From an uncultured Kofleriaceae bacterium (GTDB lineage Bacteria > Myxococcota_A > Polyangia > GCA-2747355 > CAZCFB01): 64,000 nucleotides of DNA. The notes under the pieces are model-generated. The model was not told the origin of the DNA, did not search any database, and worked only from the letters and a program-made list of their open reading frames with translations. Made by a program: the position numbers and the translations under genes. This document shows positions 2,712 through 63,200 of this stretch, piece after piece. The DNA lies in contig CAZCFB010000004.1 in assembly GCA_964497805.1 (NCBI GenBank), forward strand, positions 6,648-70,647. Reading direction: 5' to 3'. The stretch's first letter is position 1; each line of letters begins with the position of its first letter.

Positions 2712-3476
2712 TCACGGGGTCAGGGCGAAGCAGTAGATGCCGCCGTATCCCCCGGCGCCCCCGACAATGTTCGTGCCCTTGCCGCTGCCCACCTGCTTGA
2801 GCTGCACCCCGGCTGCGCACCCCGGCACCTTGTGCGCCTGGATCCAACCGGGGCTCTTGGAGGAGGGCCAGGAGTGGCCGGCGTAGACCTTCTTCTCCGA
2901 GCCTGGGCCCACGGCGCTGGTCCAGTCCTGGCATGTGCTGGCCGGGTCCGTGCTGTTGAGCTTGCCCTGGGCATTGGATCCGGTGAGCACATCGTGGTTG
3001 TCGCCGAACTGCTTCTGGGTCTGGCCATGCTCGTTGGGCAGGTCGTTGGCGATCTGGGGATCGCCCGCTGGCCGCTGCTGGGTCAGGCTCTGGATGTTGC
3101 TGGCCACCAGCCGGCCGATGCGGTCGTACCAGGGCCCCTTGCCGATGCGGTCGATGGCGTTGACCGGCTTTCCGCTGGAGTCCCTGGTGACGCTCAGGAA
3201 GGCCCGCCAGGTTTTGGATCCGAAGCCGACCCCGGCCGCGGTCTGCTGACAGATCTTGTCCGCGCCGCTCAATCCCCCCAGGTCGCCGCCGAAGCCGTCC
3301 TGGCTGCCCGAGAGCTTGCGCATGGTCTCCAGGCTGGTGACGAAGAAGCTGAAGGTGGCGGCGCCGGCCTCGGATCCAGGGGCCACGCCATCGGATACGC
3401 CGATGTCCTGGGGCGCGTCAGCTGCACGGCCCGAGCAGGCGGCGCCCTGGAGCACCACTAGAATTAACATTAACAT
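2712..3476 (-). CDS. Secreted lipoprotein, possibly DUF1554-like
   Basis: ORF 2712..3548 trimmed to MLMLILVVLQGAACSG (lipobox). FFVTS...GGDLGGLSGADKICQ resembles the DUF1554 N-terminal signature as I remember it; that family assignment is tentative. Confidence 0.65.
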   Translation of the reverse strand: MLMLILVVLQGAACSGRAADAPQDIGVSDGVAPGSEAGAATFSFFVTSLETMRKLSGSQDGFGGDLGGLSGADKICQQTAAGVGFGSKTWRAFLSVTRDSSGKPVNAIDRIGKGPWYDRIGRLVASNIQSLTQQRPAGDPQIANDLPNEHGQTQKQFGDNHDVLTGSNAQGKLNSTDPASTCQDWTSAVGPGSEKKVYAGHSWPSSKSPGWIQAHKVPGCAAGVQLKQVGSGKGTNIVGGAGGYGGIYCFALTP

Positions 3477-3632
3477 TGAACGTGTAAGCACTTGACACTC
3501 CCTCAAATACAAAAACCTGCAACAACAACCCCCATTCATCTCTTTCAAGTGTCGATGGAGGTCAAAAAGGGCTCACGGAAGCGCCATATTGCGCGTGAGC
3601 CGTTTCGGAGAGCCCGGTACACTTGATAGGTA

Positions 3633-4283
3633 ATGGTCGAATCAATCCCCCCAGCAGGCCGCGAGGCCTCCCGGCCCGAGATCTCAAATGGCCGGGAATT
3701 CCCCGGAGACGACGCCGCCCTGGTGGCCGCCCTCCAGCGGGGAGATCCGGGCGCCCCGGCCGCGCTCTTTGACCGCCACGGCGAGCATGTGCAGCGGGTG
3801 CTGGCCAATGTCCTGGGCCTGGACAACGACCTGCCCGACCTTGTGCACGAGGTGTTCGCCCGGGCGCTCAAGGGGATCCATGGCATCCGCGAGGAGAGCC
3901 ACCTCAAGGCCTGGATCACGCGCATCGCCGTGTTCACCGCCCGGGGTCACATCCGCCAGCGGGTCCGCAAGCGCTGGCTGCTCTTCTTCGCCCCGGAGGA
4001 CCTGCCTGAACCTCCGTCCACCGAGCTGGCTCCGGAGACTCGCGAGGCCCTGCGCAGCACCTACGCGGTAATGGACCGCATGCCAGCTGACCAGCGCATC
4101 GCCTTCTCCCTGCGCTTTGTGCAGGGCATGAAGCTCAAGGAGGTGGCCCAGGCCTGCGATGTCTCCCTGGCCACCATCAAGCGGCGGCTCTCGGCGGCCG
4201 AGAAGCAGTTCCTGAAGCTGGCCCGGCAGGAGGAGGCGCTGCGGCCCTGGATCGAGGAGGGGAGGCGATGGGGAAGCCGCTAA
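3633..4283 (+). CDS. ECF (sigma-24 family) RNA polymerase sigma factor
   Basis: Region 2 (DDAALVAALQRGDPGAPAALFDRHGEHVQRVL ... DLVHEVFARA) and region 4 HTH (QRIAFSLRFVQGMKLKEVAQACDVSLATIKRRL). Followed by an overlapping FecR-type gene. Confidence 0.9.
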   Translation: MVESIPPAGREASRPEISNGREFPGDDAALVAALQRGDPGAPAALFDRHGEHVQRVLANVLGLDNDLPDLVHEVFARALKGIHGIREESHLKAWITRIAVFTARGHIRQRVRKRWLLFFAPEDLPEPPSTELAPETREALRSTYAVMDRMPADQRIAFSLRFVQGMKLKEVAQACDVSLATIKRRLSAAEKQFLKLARQEEALRPWIEEGRRWGSR

Positions 4284-5926
4284 AGCCGCTGGATGATCTA
4301 CGGCAGGAGGTGCCCTCCGCCATGGATCCAGAGCTGCGCCGGCGCGGCGTGCTTGATGAAGCCCGGCAGCGTTTCCTGCTCGACAATCCCCAGGCGCGGG
4401 AGGAGCTGCTCGTGAGCATGGGGCAGGCGGTGGACGAGGCCCACCAGGCCGAGCTGAAGCAACGGCTGGACCTGGCAAGGGTGAGGACCCGCCTGCTGGC
4501 GCGTCCCGAGAGGCGGCGGAGCACTCGCCGCTGGATGTGGGCAGCCAGCCTGGGCGCGAGCGCCGCGGTTGCCACAGCGCTCCTGGTCGTCCTGCTCGGT
4601 GGCGCGCGGCCGCTGACCTTCACCGTGGACAGCGAGGCAGGAGAGGTGGGGCGCTGGCTCTCGGTGGCTGAAGCCGACCAGGCCCTGGACATGCGCTTCT
4701 CCGACGGATCCAACCTGCGCCTTGAGCCTGGCACCAACTCGCGGGTCACCCGCCTCACCCGTGACAGCGCCCATGTGGGCCTGGAGCAGGGAACCCTCGA
4801 CGTGCGAGTGGTGCCCAACGGGGACAAGCTCTGGGTGCTGGCCGTGGGCCCCTTCTCGGTGACGGTGGTGGGGACCCGGTTCCAGGTGAGCTGGGATCAA
4901 AAGACCAAGCACTTCTCCATGACCATGCGACGGGGAAAGGTGATGGTGCATGGCCCGACGCTGGGCGAGCGGGAGCTGGTCAAGGGCGAGTCGGTGGATG
5001 TCTGGGTGGGGGCCCGGCGCATGGTATTCACCGCCGCCGGAGCCAGGCCCGTGGCCCGGGTAGAGGCCACACGGCCACAGGAAGAGAGCGAGCCGGTTCA
5101 GGTGCCCCGGGCGCCCGCCAACAAGGCGTCCCTGCCCCTTGTCGGAGGCGAGGAGGTCCAGGGCCAGGCAGCCCCGGCCAAGCCAGAGCGGCTGGCGGCG
5201 GCCCCCAAGGTTCACCGCCGTCAGGCCCGGACCGGCAGACAGCGGGCCTCGGCGCCCTCCTCTGCCCTGCCCACGCAGGGGACCATGCCTCTGGAGCCAC
5301 CGCCGAGCCCTCCGAAGCCTGACCGGGAAGAGCCGACGCCGGCCAGGGAAACGCCCCCGGTTGCAGAGCCCGAAGCGCCTGTCCGGGACGAGCCTCCCCC
5401 TCCGGCGCCGGCCAAGGATCCGCCACCACCAACGGCCTCTCCCCGGCCGTGGGACCTGGCGTCGTCAGGCAAGTACAGCCAGGCCATGGCAGCCGCCCGC
5501 AAGATTGGCTGGGACAAGATCCTGACCAGCGCCCGGGCGGAGCAGCTCGCCGCGCTGGCCACCGCAGCGCGCACCCAGGGCAGCCCCGGCATCGCCATGA
5601 AGCTGCTCAAAGCCATCCGCCGCCGCTTCCCGGCCACCGCCAGCGCCGCCGAGGCCACCTTCACCCTGGGCACCATCTCGGTGCACCAGATCAAGGACCA
5701 CGACGACGCTGCGAGCTGGTTCAAGCTCTACCTGAAGCAGTGGCCTGAAGGCCCGTTGGCCCTGGCAGCCCGCGGCCGGCTGGTGGAGTGCTTGCACCGC
5801 GCGGGCAGAGGGGCCGAGGCCTGCGCCGCCGCCCGGGCCTACAGGACCGACCACCCGCGCGGGCCCCACATCCGGTTCGTGCGCAAGGTCCTGCTCAGGT
5901 GCCCCACCAGGGGGCTCACCCGGTGA
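4268..5926 (+). CDS. FecR-domain anti-sigma factor with Pro-rich linker and TPR-like C-terminus
   Basis: Overlaps the sigma gene by 16 nt. One TM segment (WMWAASLGASAAVATALLVVLLGG), a FecR-like beta region (FSDGSNLRLEPGTNSRV...GTRFQVSWD), a long P/A/E-rich spacer and a helical repeat C-terminus. Confidence 0.8.
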   Translation: MGKPLKPLDDLRQEVPSAMDPELRRRGVLDEARQRFLLDNPQAREELLVSMGQAVDEAHQAELKQRLDLARVRTRLLARPERRRSTRRWMWAASLGASAAVATALLVVLLGGARPLTFTVDSEAGEVGRWLSVAEADQALDMRFSDGSNLRLEPGTNSRVTRLTRDSAHVGLEQGTLDVRVVPNGDKLWVLAVGPFSVTVVGTRFQVSWDQKTKHFSMTMRRGKVMVHGPTLGERELVKGESVDVWVGARRMVFTAAGARPVARVEATRPQEESEPVQVPRAPANKASLPLVGGEEVQGQAAPAKPERLAAAPKVHRRQARTGRQRASAPSSALPTQGTMPLEPPPSPPKPDREEPTPARETPPVAEPEAPVRDEPPPPAPAKDPPPPTASPRPWDLASSGKYSQAMAAARKIGWDKILTSARAEQLAALATAARTQGSPGIAMKLLKAIRRRFPATASAAEATFTLGTISVHQIKDHDDAASWFKLYLKQWPEGPLALAARGRLVECLHRAGRGAEACAAARAYRTDHPRGPHIRFVRKVLLRCPTRGLTR

Positions 5927-9553: not shown

Positions 9554-10687
9554 ATGCGCGTGTACAGGTACGGGTGTGTCCTGGTTCTGGTAATGGTGTT
9601 CACTCATGGCGCGGTGGCCCACGCGGGCGGCGGCTGGAAGAAGCGAAAGGGAAAGGCGACAGGCCTCATCGGCAATCAGATCGGTGAGGCGTACACCGGC
9701 AAGGGCAACGCGGCCGCCCAGCCCCGGCGGGCAAAGCCGGACGACGAGGTGGCCTCCCCCAACGTGGTGCGGGCCGATAGCGGGGAGGACCTGGTGTTCG
9801 GCTCCCCGATCCACTTCCAGAACCTCTCCATCGTGCCGGTTTCCACCACCCGGCAGGGGCCGTTCAAGACCTACACCGTGCTGGAGGAGGGGCTCCGCGC
9901 CCAGACCCTGGCGGTGCGCGAGCTCAAGGGGAACTCGGGCGAGGCCCAGGTGGAGGCGGTGGAGATCCGCAACCGCGGCGAGCACCCCGTCTACCTGCTG
10001 GGCGGGGAGATGATCCTGGGCGGCAAGCAGGACCGGATCATCCAGCAGGACACGGTGGTGGCCAGTACCGGCAAGTGGACCCGCGTCTCGGTGTTCTGCG
10101 TGGAGCAGGGGCGCTGGGCAGGGCAGAAGATGAAGTTCTCGGCGGGCAAGGCAGTGGCCCACCTGCGGCTGCAGAAGGCGGCCATGAGCGGGAGCCAGTC
10201 AGAGGTCTGGTCCGAAGTGGCACGTAAGAACCTCAAGCACGGCACCCAGAACAGCACCAGCACCTACCGCCGCACCATCCAGAACGGCAAGGTGAGGGCC
10301 AAGATCGCGCCGTACCGCAAGAAGCTGCTCCGGATGCTGCCGCCGGGCATCCCCCTGGCCGGCCTGGTGTTCGCCATCAACGGCAAGATCCAGGTGGCCG
10401 ACCTGTTCGGCAACCCGCCCCTGTTCAAGAAGCTGACCCCGAAGCTGCTGTCGGCCTACATCCTGGAGGCCCTGGGGCAGGAGGTGATCGAGGGCGCGCC
10501 GCCGGTGAGCACCAAGGGGGCCACGCGGTTCTTCCTCAAGGCCAAGGCCGCCAAGAAGGTTCGCGTCAAGGGGAAGGCCTCGGGCAGGGCCATCAACTAC
10601 AAGCGCAAGGGCAAGGGGATCATCGGCACGCAGTCCGTGGACAAGGCCTCGGGCGAGACCCTGCGCGAGTCACTGCACGCCAACTGA
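9554..10687 (+). CDS. Secreted DUF6569 / ARPP-1-like domain protein
   Basis: ATG 9554 follows GGAGGAGG. Signal peptide MRVYRYGCVLVLVMVFTHGAVAHA. Core FQNLSIVPV...YTVLEEGLRAQTLAVRELKG...VEIRNRGEHPVYLLGGEMILGGKQDRI...VFCVEQGRW matches my memory of the DUF6569 pattern. Confidence 0.65.
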   Translation: MRVYRYGCVLVLVMVFTHGAVAHAGGGWKKRKGKATGLIGNQIGEAYTGKGNAAAQPRRAKPDDEVASPNVVRADSGEDLVFGSPIHFQNLSIVPVSTTRQGPFKTYTVLEEGLRAQTLAVRELKGNSGEAQVEAVEIRNRGEHPVYLLGGEMILGGKQDRIIQQDTVVASTGKWTRVSVFCVEQGRWAGQKMKFSAGKAVAHLRLQKAAMSGSQSEVWSEVARKNLKHGTQNSTSTYRRTIQNGKVRAKIAPYRKKLLRMLPPGIPLAGLVFAINGKIQVADLFGNPPLFKKLTPKLLSAYILEALGQEVIEGAPPVSTKGATRFFLKAKAAKKVRVKGKASGRAINYKRKGKGIIGTQSVDKASGETLRESLHAN

Positions 10688-10750
10688 TGATGCGGGATAT
10701 CAGGCCATTATACGCCCTGTGCTGGCCCGATCGTTGGTGGCTTCGCTGTA

Positions 10751-10841
10751 CAGGTTAACAGTTGACAGTTCACAGTTAACAGTTCAAGTGCCAAGGTTTC
10801 AGGTCGCTACTGTCAACTGTCAACTGTCGACTGTCGACCTG
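10751..10841. repeat. Long inverted repeat built from tandem CAGTYGN heptads (~33-bp stem, ~25-nt loop)
   Basis: 10751-10783 pairs with 10809-10841: 33 positions with 3 mismatches and 2 G-T wobbles, paired by hand. Left arm ACAGTTG ACAGTTC ACAGTTA ACAGTTC; right arm ACTGTCA ACTGTCA ACTGTCG ACTGTCG. Lies between two convergent genes. Confidence 0.85.
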
Positions 10842-10905
10842 CTCATCGGGGCCTGATCGCTGAACTCAAGAGAGGCGAATTTCTCGCCTGATGCCCCTCG
10901 GCATT

Positions 10906-12621
10906 TCACGGCAGGAACTTGAACTTCACTTCCTTGATGTAGTTCTTCCCCGACGAGTCGGTGCAGCTGCTGATGTAGCCGGAGCCGCTCTTGATCACGC
11001 TGGCGGTGGCGGTGAGGCCGCAGGTGCCGATGGTCTCATCCCACAGGGCGTCGTCCTCCTTGATGGTCAGGGTGAAGCCGCTGTTGATGAAGGTGGTGGC
11101 CGTGGCCGAGCCCACGTTCTCGTTCCAGTAGGGGGTCCAGCTGTTGTTCTTGGTGGTGGTGTTCTTGGTGGTGCCGCCCAGCTTCACCTCTATGTACACG
11201 TCCGGGTCGCCGTTGTCTGGCCAGATGTCCCAGCTGCTCTTCTTGGACTTGTCGATGGAGGCGGAGACGATATAGAGCTTCCATGTGTGGTACATGCTCA
11301 TCTTGCACTGGCCGGAGCTGCAGTACTCGTAGGAGCTGCAGGCAGAGCATGATTGCCCGCCCTTGCCGCACATCGCGTTGAGGGTGCCGAGCTCGCACTT
11401 GGTGCCGCTGCAGCAGCCGTTGCAGTTGGACGGCGAGCAGCCGGTGGTCTTGCAGGCGCCGTTCTGGCAGACCTGCCCCGACGAGCAAGAGGTGCAGCTC
11501 TTGCCGCCGGTGCCGCAGGCCGAGGTGCTGGTGCCCGGCTCGCACTTGTTGTTCTTGCAGCAGCCCGACGGGCAGGTGGTGGCGGAGCACGGCTTGACCT
11601 TGCATGAGCCGCTCTGGCAGGTTTCGTTGGCGTTGCACGCCTTGCACGCCGCCCCGCCGGTGCCGCAGGCGAAGGTGCTGTTGCCCGCCTCACACTTGTT
11701 GTTCTTGCAGCAGCCTGACGGGCAGGTGGACCCGTTGCAGACGTTGGCCTTGCACACCCCGGCCTGGCAGGTCTGAGTTGAGCCGCAGGTCACGCACTGC
11801 TTGCCGCCGCTGCCGCACGCCCCGCCGGAGGTTCCTGGCATGCAGGCGTTGCCCTGGCAGCAGCCATTGCAGTTGGAGGGTGAGCATGGCGCGCCCCCCT
11901 TGCACAGGCCGCCCACGCAGCTCTGGCTTGAACCGCAGGTGGCGCAGGCCACCCCGCCCTGGCCGCAGGCCGAGGTGCTCTTGCCTGGCTGGCACTTGTT
12001 GTTCTTGCAGCAACCGCCGCAGGTGCCCGGCCCGCAGCCGGTGATCCCCTTGCACACCCCGCCCACGCAGCTCTGAACGCCGGTGCACACCGAACAGGCC
12101 GTGCCGCCGGTGCCGCACGCCCCGCTGACGTTGCCCGTCTTGCACACGTTGCCCTGGCAGCAGCCGTTGCACGTGGCCGGGGAGCAAGAGCCCGCCAGCT
12201 TGCACGCGCCTCCCTGGCACACCTGCGACGAGGTGCAGATGGAGCAGGGCCTGCCCAGGCTACCGCACGCGCCGCCGGTGTTGCCCGGCTTGCACTGGCT
12301 CCCCTGGCAGCAACCCGAGGGACAGGTGGTCTGGGAGCAGGTGCCCTTCTTGGCGCACTTGCCCCCGGTGCAGATCTGCCCCGATGAGCACGCCTTGCAC
12401 TTTGCGCCCTTGAGCCCGCACTTTTTGGCGGACTGGGCCACCACGCAGTTGCCCTTGTTGTCGCAGCAGCCGCCACATGTGCTCGGACCGCAGGCCGCGC
12501 TGTCCAGCGCCGCGGTGTAACCATCAAGCCGCGGCCCGCCCCCCTCCACATCGTCGGAGCAGCCCAGGGCCGTCACCATCAGTCCGAGGAGCACGCATCC
12601 AGTTCTGACTAGCTTCATCAT
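10906..12621 (-). CDS. Lipoprotein with 8 tandem Cys-rich repeats and a C-terminal C2-like domain
   Basis: Start trimmed to MMKLVRTGCVLLGLMVTALGCSDD (lipobox). Eight ~49-aa repeats, C.P.TC.GCC.GN.C.PG....ACG.GG..C..C.....C..G.CK. C-terminus KLYIVSASID...GDPDVYIEVKLGG...WTPYWNENV...FTLTIKEDDALWDETIGTC follows the C2 domain pattern. Confidence 0.8.
   Translation of the reverse strand: MMKLVRTGCVLLGLMVTALGCSDDVEGGGPRLDGYTAALDSAACGPSTCGGCCDNKGNCVVAQSAKKCGLKGAKCKACSSGQICTGGKCAKKGTCSQTTCPSGCCQGSQCKPGNTGGACGSLGRPCSICTSSQVCQGGACKLAGSCSPATCNGCCQGNVCKTGNVSGACGTGGTACSVCTGVQSCVGGVCKGITGCGPGTCGGCCKNNKCQPGKSTSACGQGGVACATCGSSQSCVGGLCKGGAPCSPSNCNGCCQGNACMPGTSGGACGSGGKQCVTCGSTQTCQAGVCKANVCNGSTCPSGCCKNNKCEAGNSTFACGTGGAACKACNANETCQSGSCKVKPCSATTCPSGCCKNNKCEPGTSTSACGTGGKSCTSCSSGQVCQNGACKTTGCSPSNCNGCCSGTKCELGTLNAMCGKGGQSCSACSSYEYCSSGQCKMSMYHTWKLYIVSASIDKSKKSSWDIWPDNGDPDVYIEVKLGGTTKNTTTKNNSWTPYWNENVGSATATTFINSGFTLTIKEDDALWDETIGTCGLTATASVIKSGSGYISSCTDSSGKNYIKEVKFKFLP
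11322..12492 (-). repeat. Eight in-frame ~147-bp coding repeats (Cys-rich module array)
   Basis: Protein-level periodicity listed above. Coordinates derived from residue positions 57-447 of the track ORF. Confidence 0.75.
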
Positions 12622-51771: not shown

Positions 51772-52602
51772 TCAGCGCTTCCGTGAGGCAAAGTTGCGTA
51801 GGCGGCCGGTTACCGAGCGGGCCGCGGAGTCGAACCACCCGCCCGAGGCGCGCTTGATCAGCCAGAGCGGGAGCGCCTCGGAGGAGGGGAGGATCAGGCT
51901 CTTGCGGCGGCGCACCGCGCGCAGGATCTCGCGGGCCACCCGCTCGGGCCTGGCCGCGAACCGCTCCACGGCCCGGCGGATGCCGGTCTCGCTCCCCCCG
52001 GGCAGGGTCAGGTCCCCGTCGCGCATGAGGTTGGTGCTCACCGCCCCGGGGCAGACCGCGGTGACCCACACCCCCCGCCCAGCGAGCTCCAGAGAGAGGG
52101 ACTCGGCCAGGCCCACCAGGGCGAACTTGGTGGCCGTGTAGGCGCTGGTGTAGGGGAAGCCCACCAGCCCGGCCAGGGAGGCGACGATGACGATGTGAGC
52201 GTCCGCCTCCGAGTCCGCGGCCAACATCGCGGGCAGGAAAGCCCGCAGCCCGTGAACGGCGCTCCAGAGGTTGGCGTCCATGACCCGGCGCCACTGCTCC
52301 AGGCTCGTCTCCTCGAAGGCGCCGGCGATGATGATGCCCACGCCGAGCTGCAGCAGGTCCACCCTGCCAATCTCGGCGGCCAGGGCCTCCATCACGTCGG
52401 GATCCGTGCAGTCAGCCGGGTGCACGCCGGCCACCTGGCCCCCGGCCGCGGTGATGCTGCGCGCCACCTGCTCCAGGCGCCCGCCGTCGATGTCGGCCAG
52501 GTGCACCCTTGCGCCCTCCGCGGCGTAGGCTTCGGCCGAGGCCCGGCCGATGCCCGAGCCGGCTGCGGTGACGAGGATGGTTCGATTCTTGAAGGACTTC
52601 AT
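51772..52602 (-). CDS. Short-chain dehydrogenase/reductase (SDR)
   Basis: ILVTAAGSGIGRA (TGxxxGxG variant), IVASLAG, YTATKFAL (YxxxK). Confidence 0.85.
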   Translation of the reverse strand: MKSFKNRTILVTAAGSGIGRASAEAYAAEGARVHLADIDGGRLEQVARSITAAGGQVAGVHPADCTDPDVMEALAAEIGRVDLLQLGVGIIIAGAFEETSLEQWRRVMDANLWSAVHGLRAFLPAMLAADSEADAHIVIVASLAGLVGFPYTSAYTATKFALVGLAESLSLELAGRGVWVTAVCPGAVSTNLMRDGDLTLPGGSETGIRRAVERFAARPERVAREILRAVRRRKSLILPSSEALPLWLIKRASGGWFDSAARSVTGRLRNFASRKR

Positions 52603-52617
52603 GGGGGTGATTCTAAA

Positions 52618-52675
52618 GGGTCGAGGGGGGGAGGGAAAGGAGGGCGAGGGCCGGGGCCGGGGCCGGGGCCGGGGG
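52618..52675 (+). repeat. G-rich tract ending in (GGCCGG)n, immediately upstream of the SDR start
   Basis: GGG..GGGGGGG.GGG...GG.GGG..GGG CCGGGG CCGGGG CCGGGG CCGGGGG. The same string GGCCGGGGCCGGGGCCGGGGCC recurs at about 58975-58996. Confidence 0.85.
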
Positions 52676-52687
52676 ACCGCGGCGGCG

Positions 52688-53989
52688 CTACTTGTCCGGC
52701 GTGCCGGCGTCGGGGGCTCCGGCGTCCCAGGAGGGGTAGCCTCCGTCGGGGGCCGCGGTCAGGAATTTACCCGAGGCGGTGTTGTCCAGGCAGACGCCGT
52801 ACGGGTCCTTGGAGTTGGCCCTGTCCTTGCCCGTGTAGCGGTCGCGGCAGCGCATCTTCTGGCTGTTGGTCTTGTCGCCGATGGCCGCGCAGGCGTTGGA
52901 GGAGTTCACCGAGGCGCAGGTGCGCGTGGAGGCGTCCTGGCAGATGGGCTCCTTGACGATCTTGATCCCCTTATAGGTCCAGGTGGACCAGTCATAACAC
53001 TCGTAGTCGCCGCCATTGTCGGTGCTGTTGTTGCGGCAGTGGCTAGCCTTGCCGGGGTTGCACGACTTGAAGCAGTACCCGCCGTAGTAAAGGATGTTGC
53101 AGGCGCTGCCCGTGGGGCAGGAGAACTCCTTGAGCGCCGTGGGCCAGGAGCAGTAGCGCACCACGCAGTAGCCATTGCGGAAGGAGGTGCCGATGGCGCC
53201 GGTGTAGCTGTTGCTCTCGATGACGCAGCGGCCGTTGTTCGGGCAGTCCTTGTCGCCCTTGCAAGGGTCGCCCACCTTGGCCGTGGCCTTGCCCAGCTTG
53301 TGTGGACCGCAGATGCCGCCCTTGGTGCAGTTGCCCGGGCGGGCGCAGTTGCCGCTCTGGCAGAAGGCGTCCTTGCCCAGCTTGGAGCACTCCGTGTCGA
53401 TGGTGCATGTGGTGCTGTCCCAGACCGGGCATTCCTTGTTGGCGGTGCAGGCGGAGTAGAAACACACCGCCTGGCCCGGGCTGGCGTACCGGGTGGACGC
53501 CGGGCTGCAGCTGAGCTTGGACGAGGCGGGGCACGGGTTCTTGGTGAGGCTCGGCGAGCACTTCTCGAAGCAGTAGTTCTTGGTGGTGCCGTCGGTCATC
53601 TTGATGGCGGAGCAGACGAAGCCCTTGGGGCAGTCGTCCTCGTTGACCAGCGGGGTCTTGCTGTTGTCGAGGGTGCAGTACTTGGAGCACACCGAGGCGC
53701 CCTTGGTCTTGCTCATGGTCAGGCAGCGGTCTGCCGCGCCGGTGCAGTCCGACGACTTGGTGCACCCCTTGCCCATGTTGCCCACGGCCTGGGACCTGTC
53801 GGGCTTTGTGGCGTCAGGGACCACCGTCTGGTCCGGTGTGCCCTCATCCGCGGTGCTGATGTCCACGCTGATGTCCACCTTGATGCCGCCGCTGTCCTTC
53901 TTGGTTTCTTCAGCGTCATCGCTGCACCCGCCGAGCGCGAGGCCCAGTGCGAGCAACAGGGTCCAAACCACCATGCCGGTTCGCCGCAT
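52688..53989 (-). CDS. Cys-rich secreted lipoprotein, unknown function
   Basis: Lipobox LALGGCSDD, roughly 40 Cys, high GC3. Confidence 0.7.
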   Translation of the reverse strand: MRRTGMVVWTLLLALGLALGGCSDDAEETKKDSGGIKVDISVDISTADEGTPDQTVVPDATKPDRSQAVGNMGKGCTKSSDCTGAADRCLTMSKTKGASVCSKYCTLDNSKTPLVNEDDCPKGFVCSAIKMTDGTTKNYCFEKCSPSLTKNPCPASSKLSCSPASTRYASPGQAVCFYSACTANKECPVWDSTTCTIDTECSKLGKDAFCQSGNCARPGNCTKGGICGPHKLGKATAKVGDPCKGDKDCPNNGRCVIESNSYTGAIGTSFRNGYCVVRYCSWPTALKEFSCPTGSACNILYYGGYCFKSCNPGKASHCRNNSTDNGGDYECYDWSTWTYKGIKIVKEPICQDASTRTCASVNSSNACAAIGDKTNSQKMRCRDRYTGKDRANSKDPYGVCLDNTASGKFLTAAPDGGYPSWDAGAPDAGTPDK

Positions 53990-54124
53990 AACGTTCCCTC
54001 CAGGTAAGTGTTATCCGCCTAAAATACCCTGTTCCACGAGGGTGGGTAAAGGCATCCCGTGGACAGGGGTTAACATGTCTGCGAACATTTCTCTGTTACG
54101 CACGCAGATTCGGGAGAGGCCGCG

Positions 54125-55357
54125 ATGAAGCAATCACCTATGATCGCCCTGGCTCTGGTGGCGCTGTGCGCCGGCGGGGTGGCGTGGGCCGCCACTTACC
54201 ACACAGTCACCGTGGACGGCGTCCTGACGGAATGGAAATCCGACGAGAAGATCGCCAACGACTCGGTGGGCGACTCAAAACTCTCCGGTAACAATGAACT
54301 CTCCACCCTGTACGCGACATGGGACGCTGACGCCATCTACTTCGGCTTCGACTACACCGGCTGGGGCAGCGTGGTGAAGTACCTCGTTGAGACCGGCATG
54401 CCGGGCGGCGTGAACAATTTCTGCCCGACCTCGGGCTACAAGGGATCGTACGGCGGCAACTACATCGGGCTGCCATACGACCTGATGTTCGGCATCTCGC
54501 TGCCCGCGTCGACGCCCACCTTCCCCCAGGAGTTCGTGCACAAGCTGGCCAAGAACACCTCCACCAGCATCTTCTTCATGCCCGGGGTGCAGATCGCCTA
54601 CAAGGACTACCAGTACACGCCGGCCAAGAAGCTCCGGAAGGGGGCCATGGAGGTGCGCGTGCCGTGGAGCACCCTGTACGGTCTGGGCAAGGGTAAGGTG
54701 CCCAAGTTCACCACCATCCGCATCACCGGCGTGATGAAGGGACCCAACAACGGGGACGGCTGCGGGGACACCAACCCCAACTGCAGCGGCGGTGCCACCG
54801 GCAAGGCGTGCGGCAAGGGGGCGGCCACCAAGTTGAACAACGAGATCGTGCTCCAGGTGGACTGCGACGGCGACGGGATCCCTGACAAGGGCAGGAGCCC
54901 AACCAAGGCGGGAACCTGCCCTGTGAAGAAGGACGCGGGCCCTCCCCCGCCGGACACCAAGGCCTGGCCGGACAAGACCCCGTGGCCCGACAAGACGCCC
55001 TGGCCAGACAAGAAGCCGTGGCCCGACAAGAAGGCGTGGCCGGACACCAAGGCCTGGCCGGACAAGACCCCGTGGCCAGACAAGAAGCCGTGGCCTGACA
55101 AGGCGGCGGCCAAGCAGGACGGCAAGGGCGGCGGCAAGGACAAGGGCGGGGGCAAGAAGGACACGGGCGGCGCCAAGAAGGACGGCGCGGGCAAGTGGGA
55201 CCGCAGCGTAATCAAGCAGGACAGCAAGGCGGGCGGGGGCGAGGACGGCGGGAGCAACGAGGTGGGCTGCGACTGCGCGGTGTCGGACGAGGGATCGGCG
55301 CTGCCCTCGTTGCTGATGTTCATGGGGCTGCTGCTACTGCTGCGCCGCCGCCGCTAA
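54125..55357 (+). CDS. Secreted protein: carbohydrate-binding-like N-domain, (WPDKxP)n repeats, K/G-rich region, MYXO-CTERM tail
   Basis: Signal peptide MKQSPMIALALVALCAGGVAWA. VTVDGVLTEWKSDE...LYATWDADAIYFGF (CBM9/DOMON-like pattern). C-terminus GCDCAVSDEGSALPSLLMFMGLLLLLRRRR. Confidence 0.75.
   Translation: MKQSPMIALALVALCAGGVAWAATYHTVTVDGVLTEWKSDEKIANDSVGDSKLSGNNELSTLYATWDADAIYFGFDYTGWGSVVKYLVETGMPGGVNNFCPTSGYKGSYGGNYIGLPYDLMFGISLPASTPTFPQEFVHKLAKNTSTSIFFMPGVQIAYKDYQYTPAKKLRKGAMEVRVPWSTLYGLGKGKVPKFTTIRITGVMKGPNNGDGCGDTNPNCSGGATGKACGKGAATKLNNEIVLQVDCDGDGIPDKGRSPTKAGTCPVKKDAGPPPPDTKAWPDKTPWPDKTPWPDKKPWPDKKAWPDTKAWPDKTPWPDKKPWPDKAAAKQDGKGGGKDKGGGKKDTGGAKKDGAGKWDRSVIKQDSKAGGGEDGGSNEVGCDCAVSDEGSALPSLLMFMGLLLLLRRRR
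54950..55093 (+). repeat. Eight tandem 18-bp coding repeats (PDKxPW hexapeptides)
   Basis: Units CCGGACAAGACCCCGTGG and variants counted by hand. A partial ninth unit runs to 55102. Confidence 0.9.
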
Positions 55358-56956: not shown

Positions 56957-57023
56957 CCTTCCGCAACATCCTGGCCGAACCCTCGAAAAGAGGGGGTGGA
57001 ACTAATCACCACGGAGGGTCAGG

Positions 57024-60000
57024 ATGTTTGAACAGATGAGTATCGTCGTCGTCGCAGAGAAGCCCTCGGTGGCCCGGGACATCGCCAAGGTCCTGGGTGC
57101 CGGCGCCCGCCGCCAGGGCTACATCGAGGGGAAAGGGTACCGGGTGACCTGGGCCCTTGGGCACCTGGTGACCCTGGCCCAGCCCCACGAGATCAAGCCG
57201 CAGTGGAAGCGGTGGCGCAGGGACCAGCTCCCCATGCTGCCCGCCTCCTGGCCGCTCACGGTGCTGGAGCGAACCCGGGACCAGTACGAGATCGTCAAGA
57301 CGCTCATGAGCGGCGAGGACGTGGAGTACGTGGTGGAGGCCACCGACGCCGGGCGGGAGGGGGAGCTGATATTCCGCTACATCTACGACCGGTGCGGTTG
57401 CGACCGGCCGGTGCGGCGTCTCTGGATCTCCTCGCTCACCCCTGACGCAATCAAGAAGGGGTTCGCGGGCCTTGCCGACGGCGCCGAGTACGAACGCCTG
57501 GCCGCGGCGGCCAGGGGGCGCAGCCAGGCCGACTGGCTGGTGGGCATGAACCTCTCGCGGGCCTACACCCTCGGCACCTCCGACGACGAGCTCTTCTCGG
57601 TGGGCCGGGTGCAGACCCCCACCCTGAGCATGCTGGTGGACCGGGAGGTGGCGATCCGGGAGTTCGTGCCGCAGAAGTTCATCGAGGTGGTTGCGACCTT
57701 CCAGCCCGAGGGGAGCGAGGCGACCTACCCGGGCACCTGGTTCAAGGGCAAGGGGAAGGGCAAGACCCCCACCCGCCTGCCCCCGGACGGCGAGGAGGCG
57801 GGCGCCGTGGCGGAGCGCGCCCAGCGTGGCAGCGCCTCCATCGAGAAGGTGAAGCGGGAGAAGAAGCGCCACAAGGCCCCCCTGCTCTACGACCTCACCG
57901 AGCTGCAGCGCCACGCCAACCGGCTGTACGGCCTCTCCGCCGACAAGACCCTGAAGCTGGCGCAGGCCCTGTACGAGAAGCACAAGCTCATCAGCTACCC
58001 GCGAACCGACAGCCGCCACCTGTCCAAGGACGTGGCCGCTACCCTGGGCAACGTGGTCAAGGCCGTGGCCGCTCCTTACCGGGATCTCCTGGCGCCGGGA
58101 ACCGGGGACAAGCCCCTGGGCAAGCGGTTCGTGGACGACAAGAAGGTCACCGACCACCACGCCATCATCCCCACCACCGGCTCCATCCAGGGCAAGAGCC
58201 TGGCCCGGGAGGAGAAGCTGATCTACGACCTGGTTTGCCGTCGGCTGCTGGCCGCCTGGCACCCGGACCATGTCACCGCCACGACGACAGTGATCACCCG
58301 CATCGACGCGCCGGAGGGGGAGACCTGGAAGCCGGACCGGTACCGCTCCAGCGGCACCTCGGTGGAGGATGAGGGGTGGAAGGTGATGGAGCCCCTGGCC
58401 GTGGTGCGCAAGAAGGAGAAGGGCAAGAAGAAGAAGGCGGAGCAGCTCCTGCCGGGGGGCCTCTCCGAGGGGCAGCCAGCCAAGGTGCTCGGTACGGAGC
58501 AGCGGCCAGGGGAGACCCGCCCTCCCCGCCCCTTCACCGAGGGGACCCTGCTCACCGCCATGGAGACCGCTGGCAAGGCCCTGGATGACAAGGAGCTGTC
58601 CGACGCCATGCGTGAGCGGGGGTTGGGCACGCCGGCCACCCGGGCCAGCATCATCGAAACCCTGCTGCACCGGAAGTACATCGAGCGTCAAAAGAAGACC
58701 CTGCGCGCCACGCCCAAGGGGGAGCGGCTGATCCGGCAGGTCCATGAGGAGGTCAAGAGCCCGGCCATGACCGGCCAGTGGGAGCACCGGCTCAAGCTCA
58801 TCGAGCAGGGGAAAGATGAGCTTGATGGGTTCATGGAGGATATTGAGGCGTACGTGAAGCGGGTGGTGGGGTCGGTCTTGAAACCGGGAGGTGGAGGCAG
58901 CAGGGCGCGGGAGCGTGGTCCGTCGCCTTCGCCGTCCCCCCCCGCGAGGGAAGGGACGAGGGTTCAAGGGCCGGATGGCCGGGGCCGGGGCCGGGGCCAG
59001 GAAGCACGTTCCATGCAGCAGGTGCTCAAGGAGACCTTCAGGCACGATTCCTTCCGCCCTCATCAGGAGACGGTGTGCAAGAAGGTCATCGCTGGCGAGG
59101 ATGTCTTGCTGGTCATGCCCACCGGGGCGGGCAAGTCGCTCTGTTATCAGCTGCCGGGTCTTTGCCGTCAGGCCACCACCCTGGTGGTGAGCCCGCTCAT
59201 CGCGCTCATGGAGGATCAGGTGGCCGCCCTACAGGCCATCGGACTGCGCGCCGAGCGGATCCACTCTGGGCGGGACCGCCTGGCCTCGCGCCAGGTATGC
59301 CGCCGCTTCCTGGACAATGATCTCGACTTCCTCTTCATCGCGCCCGAGCGCCTGGCCGTGCCTGGCTTCCCGGAGTTTCTGGCCAAACGCAAGCTCGGGC
59401 TCATCGCCGTGGACGAGGCGCACTGCATCTCTCAGTGGGGTCACGACTTCCGCCCGGAGTACCGCATGCTCGGTGAGCGGCTCCCCATGCTGCGGCCCGC
59501 GCCGGTTATCGGGCTCACTGCAACGGCCACGCCTGCGGTGCAGGACGACATCGCCGAGCAGCTGGGCCTGAAGCATGACAACCGCCACATCCATGGCTTC
59601 CGGCGCACCAACATCGCCATCGAGGCGGCCGAGCTGAGCCCGAGGCTGCGCCCCGCCGCCGTGCGCAAGGTGCTGGAGAGCGAAGACCGGCTGCCCGCCA
59701 TCGTCTACTCCCCCACCCGCAAGAAGACCGAGGCCCTGGCCGCGGACCTGAGCAACGGCTTCCGCGCAGCGCCGTACCACGCGGGAATGACCGCCGAGAA
59801 GCGGGACGCTTGCCAGGCCGCGTTCATCGCCGGGGAGCTCGACGTTGTGGTGGCCACCATCGCCTTCGGAATGGGCATCGACAAGGCGAACCTGCGCACC
59901 GTGATCCACGCGGCCCTGCCCGGCAGCGTGGAGGGGTATTACCAGGAGATCGGGCGCGCGGGCCGGGACGGTAAACCTTCCCGCGCAGTGCTCCTGTACA

Positions 60001-61019
60001 GCTACGCCGATCGCCGCACCCACGAGTTCTTCTTCCAGCGGGACTACCCCGAGCCCGAGGAGCTGGGGCACCTGTTCGAGATGATCGACGACAACCCCCG
60101 CCCGGCAGAGGCCATCCGCAGGCGGCTCAACTGGGACGACGAGCCGTTCCAGACCGCCCTGGAGAAGCTCTGGATCCATGGCGGCGCCCGGGTGGATCCC
60201 GAGGAGAACGTCACCCGGGGCGAGGCGGGCTGGCGCCGGCCGTACCGCAAGCAGCGCGAACACCGCCAGGAGCAGCTGGAGAAGATCTACAGATACGCCG
60301 AGCAGCCAGCATGCCGGATGCTCACGTTGGTGAACTACTTCGGCGACAGGGAAGACTCGGGCGAGACATGCGGCGTGTGCGACGCGTGCGCACCGGGCGA
60401 CGGGCTGCTAACAAGCTTCCGCGCGGCCAGCGCCGACGAGCTCATCGGCATGGAGCGGATCCTGGACGCCCTGCGCCGCCAGGATGATCAGTCCGCCGGC
60501 AAGCTGCACCGTGAGGAGCTGTCAGACCTGGGGGAGCGCCACGACTTCGAGGATCTGGTCTCCGGGCTGGAGCGGGCCGGGCTGCTCACCCGGGTGGAGG
60601 ACAGCTTCAGCAAGGGCGGGCAGCAAATCCCGTTCACCCGGCTCCGCCTCACCGCCGACGGGGCCAACCCGGGCCAAAGCATGCTGGCCGACGCGGTGAA
60701 GATGCCCGGCGACACCTCGGCCTTCGAGCCCAAGAAGCCGCGCCGGCGCAGGGGCGGCAAGAAGAAGCGCAAGAAGGACGCCCTGGACGAGATCGAGGCC
60801 CCCGCCGCCCTGGTAGAAGCCCTGCGGCAGTGGCGCCTTGACGAGGCCAAGCGCCGCAACACCCCCGCCTTCCGGGTGCTAACCAACAAGACCCTGGGCA
60901 ACATCGCCGCGCTTCAGCCCACCTCCGAGGAGGACCTGCTCGCCGTACCCGGCATGGGTCCTGGCCTGCTCAAGAAGTACGGCGAGGCCATCCTCAAGGT
61001 CATTGAAGACAGCATGTAG
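57024..61019 (+). CDS. topB/recQ: DNA topoisomerase III fused in frame to RecQ helicase (with RQC zinc motif and HRDC)
   Basis: aa 1-~620 Topo IA/III: VVAEKPSVARDIA, VEATDAGREGELIF, GRVQTPT, ISYPRTDS (catalytic Tyr context). RG/SP linker. From aa 664 (ATG 59013) RecQ: FRPHQ, MPTGAGKSLCYQLP, DEAHCISQWGHDFRPEY, Zn motif CRM...CGVCDAC, C-terminal HRDC (ALRQWRLDEAKRRNTPAFRVLTNKTL). Confidence 0.85.
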   Translation: MFEQMSIVVVAEKPSVARDIAKVLGAGARRQGYIEGKGYRVTWALGHLVTLAQPHEIKPQWKRWRRDQLPMLPASWPLTVLERTRDQYEIVKTLMSGEDVEYVVEATDAGREGELIFRYIYDRCGCDRPVRRLWISSLTPDAIKKGFAGLADGAEYERLAAAARGRSQADWLVGMNLSRAYTLGTSDDELFSVGRVQTPTLSMLVDREVAIREFVPQKFIEVVATFQPEGSEATYPGTWFKGKGKGKTPTRLPPDGEEAGAVAERAQRGSASIEKVKREKKRHKAPLLYDLTELQRHANRLYGLSADKTLKLAQALYEKHKLISYPRTDSRHLSKDVAATLGNVVKAVAAPYRDLLAPGTGDKPLGKRFVDDKKVTDHHAIIPTTGSIQGKSLAREEKLIYDLVCRRLLAAWHPDHVTATTTVITRIDAPEGETWKPDRYRSSGTSVEDEGWKVMEPLAVVRKKEKGKKKKAEQLLPGGLSEGQPAKVLGTEQRPGETRPPRPFTEGTLLTAMETAGKALDDKELSDAMRERGLGTPATRASIIETLLHRKYIERQKKTLRATPKGERLIRQVHEEVKSPAMTGQWEHRLKLIEQGKDELDGFMEDIEAYVKRVVGSVLKPGGGGSRARERGPSPSPSPPAREGTRVQGPDGRGRGRGQEARSMQQVLKETFRHDSFRPHQETVCKKVIAGEDVLLVMPTGAGKSLCYQLPGLCRQATTLVVSPLIALMEDQVAALQAIGLRAERIHSGRDRLASRQVCRRFLDNDLDFLFIAPERLAVPGFPEFLAKRKLGLIAVDEAHCISQWGHDFRPEYRMLGERLPMLRPAPVIGLTATATPAVQDDIAEQLGLKHDNRHIHGFRRTNIAIEAAELSPRLRPAAVRKVLESEDRLPAIVYSPTRKKTEALAADLSNGFRAAPYHAGMTAEKRDACQAAFIAGELDVVVATIAFGMGIDKANLRTVIHAALPGSVEGYYQEIGRAGRDGKPSRAVLLYSYADRRTHEFFFQRDYPEPEELGHLFEMIDDNPRPAEAIRRRLNWDDEPFQTALEKLWIHGGARVDPEENVTRGEAGWRRPYRKQREHRQEQLEKIYRYAEQPACRMLTLVNYFGDREDSGETCGVCDACAPGDGLLTSFRAASADELIGMERILDALRRQDDQSAGKLHREELSDLGERHDFEDLVSGLERAGLLTRVEDSFSKGGQQIPFTRLRLTADGANPGQSMLADAVKMPGDTSAFEPKKPRRRRGGKKKRKKDALDEIEAPAALVEALRQWRLDEAKRRNTPAFRVLTNKTLGNIAALQPTSEEDLLAVPGMGPGLLKKYGEAILKVIEDSM

Positions 61020-61154: not shown

Positions 61155-63200
61155 ATGACCGAAAAGACCGTCGAGCAGCTCGAGGCGGCCCTCCGCCATC
61201 ACAATCACCTTTACTGGGATCTGGCCCGGCCAGAGATCAGCGACTACGAGTACGACCAGCTCGTGGAGCAGCTGCGCGCCCTGGCGCCCGATTCGCCGGT
61301 GCTGGAGGAGCTGGGCCCCAGCGGGGTTGGCCTCATCGGCGAGCCGGTGAAGCACGCCTCGCCCATGCTCTCCCTCGACAAGTGCTACGCGTACAAGGAG
61401 GAGGACTCCACCAAGCAGAGCCTCTTCAACTGGGCCCACACCTCCAGCCGGGCCGGGGGCGAGGTGACCTACGCCCCGCGCTTCGAGGGTGACGTGGTGG
61501 TGACCCCCAAGATGGACGGCATCGCCTGCTCCCTGCGCTATGACGGCGAGGGCGTGCTCCACCTGGCAGCCACCCGGGGCAACGGCAAGGAGGGGGACAA
61601 CATCTCGGCCAACGCCCGCACCATCACCGACATCCCCAAGGTGGTGGACCGTCCGGGCGTGGAGGTGCGGGGTGAGATCTACATGCGTCTGAGCGTGTTC
61701 GCCGGGTTCGCGGACCAGTTCTCAAACCCACGCAACCTGGCAGCGGGGGCCATCAAGCAGAAGGATCCGCTCAACACCGCCGCGTACAAGCTCTCCTTCG
61801 CCGCCTACGACATCGTGGGCGCGGACCTGGCCACCGAGGTGGAGAAGTACGCCGAGCTGGCCCGCCTTGGCTTCCCTGAGATGGAGCACGAGGTGGTGGG
61901 CCTCGACAGCATGGCGCGGGGGTACGAGAACATCGCCGCCAACCGGGACAGCCTGGACTACGAGATCGACGGGGTGGTCTACAAGGTGAACCGGGTGGCC
62001 GAGCAAACACGCCTGGGCGCCACGGCCCACCACCCGCGCCACGCCATCGCCTACAAGTTCCAGGGGGACCAGTCCACCACCATCCTGCGGGAGGTTAGCT
62101 GGAGCGTGGCCCGGTCCGGCGCCATCACCCCGGTGGCCAGGGTGGAGCCGGTGACCCTGAGCGGCGCCGCCATCAGCCGCGCGTCGCTGCACAACGCGGG
62201 CTTCCTCAGGAAGCTGGATCTGCTCGGCCGCTACCCGGGCGCGGAGGTTGTGATCACCCGCCGGGGGGGCGTAATCCCGAAGGTGGAGTTCGTGGTCAAG
62301 CATGTGGAGGATCCGCCCGAGGGGGCGGAGCCCATCGCCTTCCCCGAGGTGTGCCCATCCTGTGGCGGACCGGTGAAGCGGGAGCCACCCGAGGGCGAGG
62401 TGGAGTTCCTCTCCTGCGAGCGCCCGGAATCCTGCCGGAGCGCCACCATCGGCGCCCTGGCCCACTACGCCAAGGCCCTGGACATCATGGGCTTCGGCGA
62501 GAAGCTGCTGACCCAGGCCCACGACCGGGAGCTGCTGGAGACCCCGGCTGACTTCTACACCCTGCAGCCGGGGGACCTCCTGGAGCTGGAGCGGGTGGGG
62601 CAGAAATTGGCCGACAAGCTGGTGCAGGAGGTGGCTGACCACCGGGAGGTGCCGCTGACCACCTTCCTGCGGGCGCTGGGCGCGGAGGAGTTGAGCCACC
62701 ACGCGTCCGGGATCCTCGCGGACCATTACCTCACCCTGGAGCGGGTGCGCCAGGCCACGGCCGAGGAGCTGCAGCCCCTGCACGGCATCGGCGAGGTGAT
62801 CGCCCGCAAGGTGGTGCAGGGCCTGGCCGAAAAAGCCGAGCTCATCGACGCGCTGATTGCCCACGTCACCGTGCTGGACCATGTGCCCGAAGAGAAGCCC
62901 ACGGGCGACGCCGCCCCCCTGGCCGGGCTCAGCTTCGTGTTCACCGGCGCCCTGGAGCAGATGACCCGCAAGGAGGCCCAGCAGAAGGTCAAGGCCCTGG
63001 GCGGGGAGGCCCCCTCCGGAGTGAGCGGCAATCTCTCCTACCTGGTGGTGGGCGGCGACCCCGGCGCCAAAAAGAGCGGCAAGCAAAAGAAGGCAGAGGC
63101 GTACATCGCCAAGGGCGCGGAGACGAAGATCATCAGCGAGGGTGATTTTGTGAAGATGCTCGAGAAGGATCCGGACCAGCTCTCACTCTTCGACGCTTGA
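61155..63200 (+). CDS. ligA: NAD-dependent DNA ligase
   Basis: KMDGIA (KxDG adenylation Lys), OB fold, Zn finger CPSCGGPV...C, HhH repeats, C-terminal BRCT (FVFTGAL...KSGKQKKAE). Confidence 0.95.
   Translation: MTEKTVEQLEAALRHHNHLYWDLARPEISDYEYDQLVEQLRALAPDSPVLEELGPSGVGLIGEPVKHASPMLSLDKCYAYKEEDSTKQSLFNWAHTSSRAGGEVTYAPRFEGDVVVTPKMDGIACSLRYDGEGVLHLAATRGNGKEGDNISANARTITDIPKVVDRPGVEVRGEIYMRLSVFAGFADQFSNPRNLAAGAIKQKDPLNTAAYKLSFAAYDIVGADLATEVEKYAELARLGFPEMEHEVVGLDSMARGYENIAANRDSLDYEIDGVVYKVNRVAEQTRLGATAHHPRHAIAYKFQGDQSTTILREVSWSVARSGAITPVARVEPVTLSGAAISRASLHNAGFLRKLDLLGRYPGAEVVITRRGGVIPKVEFVVKHVEDPPEGAEPIAFPEVCPSCGGPVKREPPEGEVEFLSCERPESCRSATIGALAHYAKALDIMGFGEKLLTQAHDRELLETPADFYTLQPGDLLELERVGQKLADKLVQEVADHREVPLTTFLRALGAEELSHHASGILADHYLTLERVRQATAEELQPLHGIGEVIARKVVQGLAEKAELIDALIAHVTVLDHVPEEKPTGDAAPLAGLSFVFTGALEQMTRKEAQQKVKALGGEAPSGVSGNLSYLVVGGDPGAKKSGKQKKAEAYIAKGAETKIISEGDFVKMLEKDPDQLSLFDA

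Follow-up and report, generated by a model that had tools for sequence, protein, structure and literature searches.

A single-chain topoisomerase III-RecQ fusion gene in an uncultured Kofleriaceae bacterium and its relatives in many bacterial lineages

A stretch of 64,000 nucleotides from an uncultured Kofleriaceae bacterium (assembly GCA_964497805.1, contig CAZCFB010000004.1), hereafter the window, carries a gene in which a type IA topoisomerase III (Topo III) and a RecQ helicase are encoded as one polypeptide. The gene had been singled out in a first-pass annotation as one uninterrupted open reading frame (ORF) of 1331 codons, and this was borne out: translation of 57024..61019 gave a single ATG-started ORF with no internal stop, preceded by a GGAGG Shine-Dalgarno sequence about 7 nt 5' of the ATG. 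Pfam searches with the protein identified Toprim (8-137), Topoisom_bac (155-604, 363 bits), DEAD (678-840), Helicase_C (879-983), RecQ_Zn_bind (1075-1122) and HRDC (1262-1327). The features of the gene are listed here, with nucleotide positions counted in the 64-kb window and residue numbers in the protein of 1331 amino acids (aa).

57024..61019, plus strand: whole fusion gene, 1331 codons plus stop, with an ATG start and a GGAGG ribosome-binding site
57045..57434, plus strand: TOPRIM domain, residues 8-137 (Pfam), with E12 and the acidic motif ATDAGREGE (D108, G110, E112)
57486..58835, plus strand: topoisomerase IA core, domains II-IV, residues 155-604 (Pfam, NCBIfam and structure match)
58878..59012, plus strand: Gly/Pro/Ser/Arg-rich disordered linker, about residues 619-663 (predicted local distance difference test, pLDDT, and alignment)
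59055..59972, plus strand: RecQ superfamily 2 (SF2) helicase core, with DEAD at 678-840 and Helicase_C at 879-983 (Pfam and alignment)
60018..60245, plus strand: subfamily-specific insertion of about 64 residues, at about residues 999-1074, between RecA2 and the zinc site
60246..60389, plus strand: RecQ zinc-binding module, residues 1075-1122, with C1097, C1116, C1119 and C1122 invariant
60417..60707, plus strand: predicted RQC-type winged helix with a long beta-hairpin, about residues 1132-1228 (AlphaFold secondary structure)
60708..60803, plus strand: second, basic disordered tether, about residues 1229-1260, KKPRRRRGGKKKRKK, with pLDDT below 50 at 1242-1251 and variable in the family
60807..61004, plus strand: HRDC domain, residues 1262-1327 (Pfam, 76.5 bits; helical bundle in the model)

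The GC content at third codon positions (GC3) was 0.90 over the whole ORF, matching the expectation for a real gene in DNA of 68% GC, and 0.68 in the low-complexity linker. Antisense ORFs overlie the gene, for example one of 685 aa at 57006..59063, and are the usual by-product of high GC. No second type IA topoisomerase or RecQ gene was found within the window. The exact protein was absent from database records, and residue 629 in the linker (58908-58910) is Arg in the window protein and Gly in the cluster representative P0001, which is listed as 100% identical.

The N-terminal half was confirmed as a complete type IA Topo III with a TOPRIM domain and a tyrosine in ISYPRTDS. It passed the NCBIfam cut-offs for topoisomerase 3 (NF005829, 672.9; cut-off 597) and topB (TIGR01056, 570.2; cut-off 515.75), and the catalytic Tyr325 (codon 57996-57998, in LISYPRTDSRHL) aligned with Y328 of E. 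coli Topo III and was invariant in family alignments of 40 and 77 sequences. Alignment to solved structures placed E12 in an EKPS motif and identified a DHHAIIPT motif. The AlphaFold model of this half matched the four-domain toroidal fold of Topo III; its Foldseek superposition on the E. coli enzyme (2o19) had a target-normalised template-modelling (TM) score of 0.83 and a root-mean-square deviation of 3.9 Å over 631 columns.

In the TOPRIM domain, E12, D108 and E112 are present and the second Asp of DxDxE is Gly110 (DAGRE). Decay of the site was considered and ruled out because DAGREGE is invariant in the fusion family and is the usual form in this TopB subfamily, being found at 13 of 18 loci of stand-alone TopB relatives, cultured Bacillaceae (Firmicutes) included, with DSGREGE at one more. 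The variant site is probably functional, as judged from this conservation. At their C-termini the stand-alone relatives carry zinc-ribbon or Toprim_Crpt repeats rich in Cys; the fusion is without them, and RecQ occupies the place of the zinc-ribbon tail. The equivalent of the decatenation loop was located at residues 513-531, with a gap of one residue in the alignment to E. coli Topo III; in the E. coli enzyme the loop spans about residues 502-519, and it sets Topo III apart from Topo I. A lysine-rich loop, VVRKKEKGKKKKAEQ, was also observed at residues 459-475 (58398-58448); the loop is disordered (pLDDT below 50), and the stretch of E. coli Topo III to which it aligns is acidic, a charge swap opposite to that of the decatenation-loop region described below.

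For the C-terminal half, the first-pass description of a full RecQ stood for the helicase motifs, the zinc site and the HRDC domain; the Pfam RQC model did not match the fusion protein even at E=10, and the winged helix was recovered only in the structure model. The motifs comprise motif 0 (FRPHQ), Walker A (MPTGAGKS, with K704), DEAH at 797-800 (motif region VDEAHCISQWGHDFRPEY) with the aromatic-rich loop CISQWGHDFRPEY, motif III (TATAT) and motif VI (QEIGRAGRDG). RecQ_Zn_bind scored 38.8 (cut-off 25), and its four cysteines align with the zinc cysteines of E. coli RecQ. Residues 1132-1228 were predicted to form three helices followed by a long hairpin and aligned weakly to the winged helix of C. 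sakazakii RecQ. The AlphaFold model of the RecQ half (pLDDT 89.7; predicted TM score, pTM, 0.82) superposed on the catalytic cores of E. coli and C. sakazakii RecQ with target-normalised TM scores of 0.71-0.73 over about 590 columns, and the crystal constructs of these cores include the winged helix. In the alignments of 40 and 77 family members the catalytic residues of both halves were invariant or nearly so, and alignment residue by residue found them intact in the window protein, with neither half degenerate. Both halves appear complete and, by their motifs and models, look active.

The RecQ half passed the general family model (TIGR00614 recQ_fam, 386; cut-off 220) and failed the canonical RecQ equivalogs TIGR01389 (492; cut-off 640) and PRK11057 (385; cut-off 1015). 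The insertion at residues 999-1074 was confidently predicted by AlphaFold as three helices and a beta-hairpin, resembling a winged helix, followed by a long helix that runs into the zinc site; it is conserved within the fusion family and matched no Pfam family. From motif VI to the first zinc Cys, 120 residues were counted in the window protein versus 50-56 in canonical RecQs (Vibrio, Rouxiella), and a spacing of 116-141 was found in all fused proteins in which both motifs were found, plus a set of stand-alone RecQs. On these sequence features, the RecQ module is assigned to a distinct long-insert subfamily.

The RG/SP-rich linker that had been noted between the halves was located at about residues 619-663. 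In an AlphaFold model of residues 1-1200, both modules were well folded (mean pLDDT 86.5), the linker had pLDDT 31-43 (residues 623-658), and the pTM was just 0.56, compared with 0.82 for the RecQ half alone. Among 120 homologues, the linker columns had an identity of about 0.1 and more than 50% gaps, and across the family the linker ranges from 17 to 179 aa and is rich in Pro, Gly, Ala and Ser. Relaxed Pfam scans of the linker, the insertion and the putative winged helix yielded nothing usable. The models are consistent with two enzymes on a flexible tether without a fixed interface.

Searches for homologues showed that the fusion is conserved across many lineages. The best 120 matches in a collection of 5.8 billion proteins were all 1283-1529 aa long, with the same six Pfam domains and 55-81% identity. 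In an exhaustive search, 52 of the best 150 representatives at 50% identity contained both halves; 32 of these were complete, and 30 of the 32 had every catalytic motif. A scan of GTDB species representatives found clean in-frame fusions in 10 species genomes, the orthologue with 81% identity was intact on two separate assemblies or contigs, and the gene was present on two circular chromosomes assembled from long reads, one of 9.3 Mb (55x coverage) and one of 7.05 Mb. The fusion is not an assembly artefact, and independent assemblies in which it is intact support continuity across the linker. The carriers were chiefly Acidobacteriota (Solibacteraceae, Bryobacterales, Terriglobia, Thermoanaerobaculia), with further examples in metagenome-assembled genomes (MAGs) of Polyangiaceae and "Deltaproteobacteria", in Oligoflexus, and in Competibacteraceae and other proteobacterial MAGs; a Zetaproteobacteria MAG carries a form without HRDC. 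Those with names belong mainly to MAG lineages of soil, freshwater and wastewater type and not to hyperthermophiles. Plasmid carriage was not observed: among at least 5000 matching plasmid records, none covered 80% or more of the protein or contained both halves as one gene.

The history of the fusion was analysed with neighbour-joining trees (200 bootstraps) computed separately for the RecQ and Topo halves. In the RecQ tree, the fused proteins and their close stand-alone RecQs formed one clade in 200/200 replicates, and monophyly of the fused proteins alone was recovered in 0/200. The stand-alone RecQs of Acidobacteriaceae type formed one clade (198/200) nested within the fused diversity, with the fused proteins L004 and L006 outside it in 191/200 and 190/200 replicates, respectively, indicating that the Topo module was probably lost secondarily. 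L004 and L006 were basal in both half-trees, and the window protein grouped with the same relatives in both, namely with a protein from a "Deltaproteobacteria" MAG. These topologies suggest, with moderate support, that the fusion happened once, long ago, and that some lineages later lost the Topo module; repeated fusion is possible. The partners appear to have been a TopB of the DAGREGE subfamily and a RecQ of the long-insert subfamily, joined once, and the later history suggests loss of the topoisomerase, loss of HRDC or inactivation of the helicase in some lineages.

Comparison with stand-alone relatives points to the same two subfamilies. TopB proteins of Firmicutes, Actinobacteria and other groups (PRK07726 type) share the subfamily of the Topo half (673 bits) and its DAGREGE motif, with 36-47% identity over full-length matches and up to 53% to the contig-truncated L034, but carry Cys-rich zinc-ribbon or Toprim_Crpt repeats where the fusion has RecQ. 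Stand-alone long-insert RecQs from Acidobacteriaceae, Holophagae, Ktedonobacteraceae and Polyangiaceae are 42-54% identical over the whole RecQ half, have the same spacing of 116-141 residues, and have no topoisomerase within 6 kb. Two loci with both genes as separate units were also observed. In Listeria monocytogenes NZ_LR134400.1 (L087, 3980-7929), recQ and topB follow one another on the same strand, 23 nt apart, with recQ first where the fusion has the topoisomerase first; although filed as a plasmid, this record spans 594 kb and is non-mobilizable. This operon-like pair is independent evidence of linkage and not a direct precursor of the fusion. In an Enterocloster MAG (L076), a stand-alone TopB gene and a RecQ-like gene (3393-5273 and 10294-11295) lie about 5 kb apart on one contig.

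E. coli RecQ and Topo III, which work together with SSB, belong to the same two enzyme families; apart from the Gly110 variant of the TOPRIM site, the catalytic residues are common to both systems, and the same chemistry is expected, with single-stranded DNA produced by the helicase and strand passage by the topoisomerase. Over the superposed structures (TM score 0.83), the Topo half and E. coli Topo III share about 30% identity; the RecQ core superposes on E. coli RecQ at 0.73. The fusion is one chain, whereas the E. coli enzymes are two proteins bridged by SSB. Unlike E. coli Topo III, its TopB belongs to the DAGREGE subfamily, is without the C-terminal DNA-binding tail, and has an acidic rather than basic decatenation-loop region; unlike E. 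coli RecQ, its RecQ has the insertion of about 64 residues and falls below the RecQ equivalog cut-off. The eukaryotic BLM/Sgs1-Top3-Rmi1 dissolvasome likewise has an HRDC-bearing RecQ physically attached to Topo III. Top3 binds the N-terminal region of Sgs1/BLM, a site that would presumably place the topoisomerase N-terminal of the helicase core, as in the fusion. The attachment is covalent in the fusion and made through a protein-protein interface in the dissolvasome, and the fusion is bacterial and much smaller. An RMI1-like OB-fold partner of the fusion was neither identified nor looked for.

Taken together, the ORF is a genuine gene on the chromosome that encodes two catalytic modules in one chain, with an apparently single fusion origin, and we consider it likely that the tethered RecQ and Topo III unlink DNA. 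The most likely function of the protein would be the decatenation or dissolution of intermediates of replication and recombination by a helicase and a topoisomerase on one tether. Catenation, decatenation and the resolving of converging forks by E. coli RecQ with Topo III have been published (as cited in PMC2647321 and PMC8185306), as has dissolution by eukaryotic BLM/Sgs1-Top3 (PMC7245102). In the proposed mechanism, the RecQ module would recognise branched or gapped DNA, such as forks, gaps and junctions, and unwind or branch-migrate it 3'-to-5' with ATP, exposing single-stranded DNA beside the tethered topoisomerase. The Topo III core would cut and reseal this single strand through Tyr325 and the Mg-binding TOPRIM site and pass strands via transient nicks, and the joint outcome would be the unlinking of converging forks, hemicatenanes, precatenanes and double Holliday junctions without crossovers. 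Recruitment mediated by SSB or RMI1 would be replaced by the covalent tether, which would provide 1:1 stoichiometry and high local concentration.

Several observations weigh against this reading. The coupled decatenation or dissolution role is carried over from E. coli and eukaryotic enzymes that are separate proteins. The region of the decatenation loop has a net acidic charge (ALDDKELSDAMRE), as opposed to the basic FVQDKDLKKILRA in E. coli, so that proficiency in decatenation is not assured. AlphaFold detected no contact between the modules, which leaves allosteric coupling unsupported. Regarding the single origin, monophyly of the fused Topo halves was moderately supported (127/200) and only with one contig-truncated sequence included in the group. 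One Polyangiaceae MAG (labscale reactor_MAG19) contains the fusion together with a second, stand-alone long-insert RecQ (L018, L025); these two paired as sisters in the tree of RecQ halves (155/200), a pattern suggestive of a duplication after which one copy lost its Topo module. Finally, three members of the family indicate that helicase activity is not always required. In the fusion clusters P0150 and P0187 the Topo half is intact, with DAGREGE and the catalytic Tyr, while Walker A, DEAH and motif VI are not recognisable; in P0187, aligned residue by residue, motif III is gone too and the zinc cysteines are kept. From their sequences, both are probably helicase-dead RecQ scaffolds on an apparently live topoisomerase. 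P0193 (919 aa) has a Topo half 52% identical to that of the window protein, followed by about 220 low-complexity residues and HRDC alone, the helicase core being gone. Forms without HRDC were found among the other derivatives.

A more far-reaching interpretation, which we regard as tentative and on balance doubtful, is that the fusion is an ancient, self-contained bacterial dissolvasome of single origin, in which the tether replaced recruitment of the SSB or RMI1 type in much of Acidobacteriota and several other phyla. If so, the inserted winged-helix-like element and the loops of reversed charge would adapt the two modules to one DNA junction, and properties beyond those of the separate E. 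coli enzymes might be expected, for instance processive ATP-coupled unlinking. The derivatives that are helicase-dead, HRDC-less, reduced to Topo and HRDC, or Topo-less would then form a natural dissection series.

The helicase-dead relatives also indicate that the RecQ module can act as a scaffold only, and it is conceivable, though rather unlikely, that RecQ mainly binds DNA structures or partners to deliver the topoisomerase, with ATP-driven unwinding dispensable. In P0150 and P0187 the zinc cysteines are kept beside an intact Topo half while Walker A, DEAH, motif III and motif VI are lost, P0193 retains HRDC alone after the Topo core, and RecQ sits where stand-alone TopBs have a DNA-binding zinc-ribbon tail. 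However, the window protein and 30 of the 32 complete representatives retain the full set of helicase motifs, with many positions invariant in the alignments of 40 and 77 sequences, which argues for selection for ATPase activity in most lineages.

Apart from reverse gyrase, no natural protein has been described in which an SF2 helicase-type module and a type IA topoisomerase share a single chain (PMC7245102, PMC2647321), and the first-pass annotation had drawn a loose analogy to reverse gyrase. The analogy held in that loose sense only, since the domain order is opposite, the linker is disordered and no fixed geometry between the modules was predicted. A reverse-gyrase-like machine, in which the helicase would serve as a nucleotide-gated clamp that drives directional (e.g., positive) supercoiling and not true unwinding, is very unlikely here. 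The NCBIfam reverse gyrase model (TIGR01054) did match the Topo part weakly, but at 101 bits against a cut-off of 472, and no reverse gyrase structure was among the top 50 structural matches of the fusion model. In reverse gyrase, the helicase is N-terminal and the topoisomerase C-terminal, the helicase is a stripped-down module and not a true RecQ, the modules are tightly packed, and the activity is positive supercoiling in thermophiles. The fusion, in contrast, has the topoisomerase N-terminal and a complete C-terminal RecQ (zinc site, predicted winged helix, HRDC) on a flexible tether of very variable length, with a pTM of 0.56, and its named carriers are mostly not hyperthermophiles.

A literature search for a natural Topo III-RecQ fusion, with most subscription journals outside its scope, returned no description of one, only the two-protein system and reverse gyrase. 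A paper of 2020 states that hyperthermophiles "uniquely" fused helicase and topoisomerase units, as reverse gyrase (PMC7245102), and the in vivo role of the bacterial RecQ/Topo III pair is still called poorly defined (PMC13244152). The RecQ-Topo III partnership itself is well known; what appears to be undescribed is its single-chain form, together with the long-insert subfamily of RecQ and the derivative series. RecQ helicases act in partnership with Topo III in organisms from bacteria to humans, and the fusion provides gene-fusion evidence that both activities act on the same substrate in many bacteria. With both enzymes in one polypeptide at 1:1, decatenation and dissolution could be studied by structural and single-molecule methods without reconstituting a complex, and the natural variants of the fusion (helicase-dead, HRDC-less, Topo-less) hint at which parts are essential.

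In the window, the fusion gene is flanked by an enoyl-CoA hydratase (ECH) gene and by ligA:

61155..63200, plus strand: ligA, NAD-dependent DNA ligase with adenylation, OB, HhH and BRCT domains

The first-pass annotation had placed ligA 136 nt downstream; the gap is 135 nt and contains no terminator-like site, and the adjacency is kept solely in the closest relative, the one with 81% identity, in which ligA overlaps the fusion stop codon by 4 nt. The short terminator-free gap and this overlap make co-transcription with ligA likely in this clade. As a conserved partner of the fusion, ligA was rejected: it was absent at all 80 GTDB loci and on five other contigs, where the wider neighbourhoods were variable, unrelated and housekeeping-like. 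The named relatives of the window LigA, at 52-55% identity, were from Myxococcales, Polyangiaceae and Labilithrix; with the grouping of both fusion halves beside a "Deltaproteobacteria" MAG protein, this makes an uncultured Myxococcota-like source of the window probable.

This context also bears on a defence or mobile-element helicase, either DpdF of a 7-deazaguanine DNA-modification island or a component of another anti-phage system, which we regard as highly improbable. The PADLOC model PDLC02865 (named DpdF, 1499 positions) matches the whole fusion with 1584 bits, Topo half included, and other DpdF, PsyrT, BrxH and Cas3-like PADLOC models match the helicase core. However, none of the 10 neighbouring proteins matched any PADLOC model, the loci of relatives were without Dpd-type genes, the curated NCBIfam DpdF model NF041063 scored 206, below its cut-off of 550, and none of the at least 5000 matching plasmid records covered 80% or more of the protein. 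The DpdF label is not specific, because PADLOC DpdF models of about 610 positions match the RecQ half over RecQ-like spans. With no supporting gene context, the Dpd or defence reading of the match was rejected; the match to PDLC02865 indicates instead that such fusions have been swept into defence-gene models, and that scanners could mislabel the fusion gene. In databases, the fusion proteins are named "DNA topoisomerase 3" or "RecQ family helicase", and these annotations, together with the PADLOC "DpdF", hide the architecture and carry a risk of mislabelling as defence genes.

The remaining alternative, that adjacent topB and recQ genes only look fused, through an error of sequencing or assembly or a spacer that is open by chance in a GC-rich genome, has next to no probability: the linker is of low complexity with weaker codon-position bias (GC3 0.68 versus 0.90), long chance ORFs such as the 685-aa antisense ORF do occur in high-GC DNA, and the halves are out of frame at four GTDB loci, but the fusion is in frame and free of stops in 10 independent species genomes, is intact in two assemblies of the 81% orthologue and on the circular chromosomes from long reads, and is without the zinc-ribbon tails of stand-alone Topo relatives. 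The frame is always kept despite linkers of 17-179 residues, unlike in a non-coding spacer, and conservation in many lineages excludes adjacent genes or a frameshift. The four frame-broken loci (L010, L011, L039, L058) are all from long-read 'MFD' MAGs of one project. Frame changes fall inside a conserved domain in L011, L039 and L058, within the Topo domain in the first two, and in these three loci probably stem from read errors. L010 has just one frame change, located in the linker, and may be a genuine split gene.

Other observations in the window concern genes away from the fusion. Upstream of it, on the plus strand, lie ORFs of 485 aa (52550-54007) and 410 aa (54125-55357) that matched neither Pfam nor PADLOC. 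In the 81% relative, a Pfam-less gene of 409 aa lies upstream of the ECH gene (L081, 1443-2672), similar in size and position to the 410-aa ORF of the window. At 9674-9768 on the minus strand, ARAGORN called a tRNA-Ala (TGC) of 95 nt rather than the usual length of about 76 nt, which may reflect an insertion or a doubtful call.

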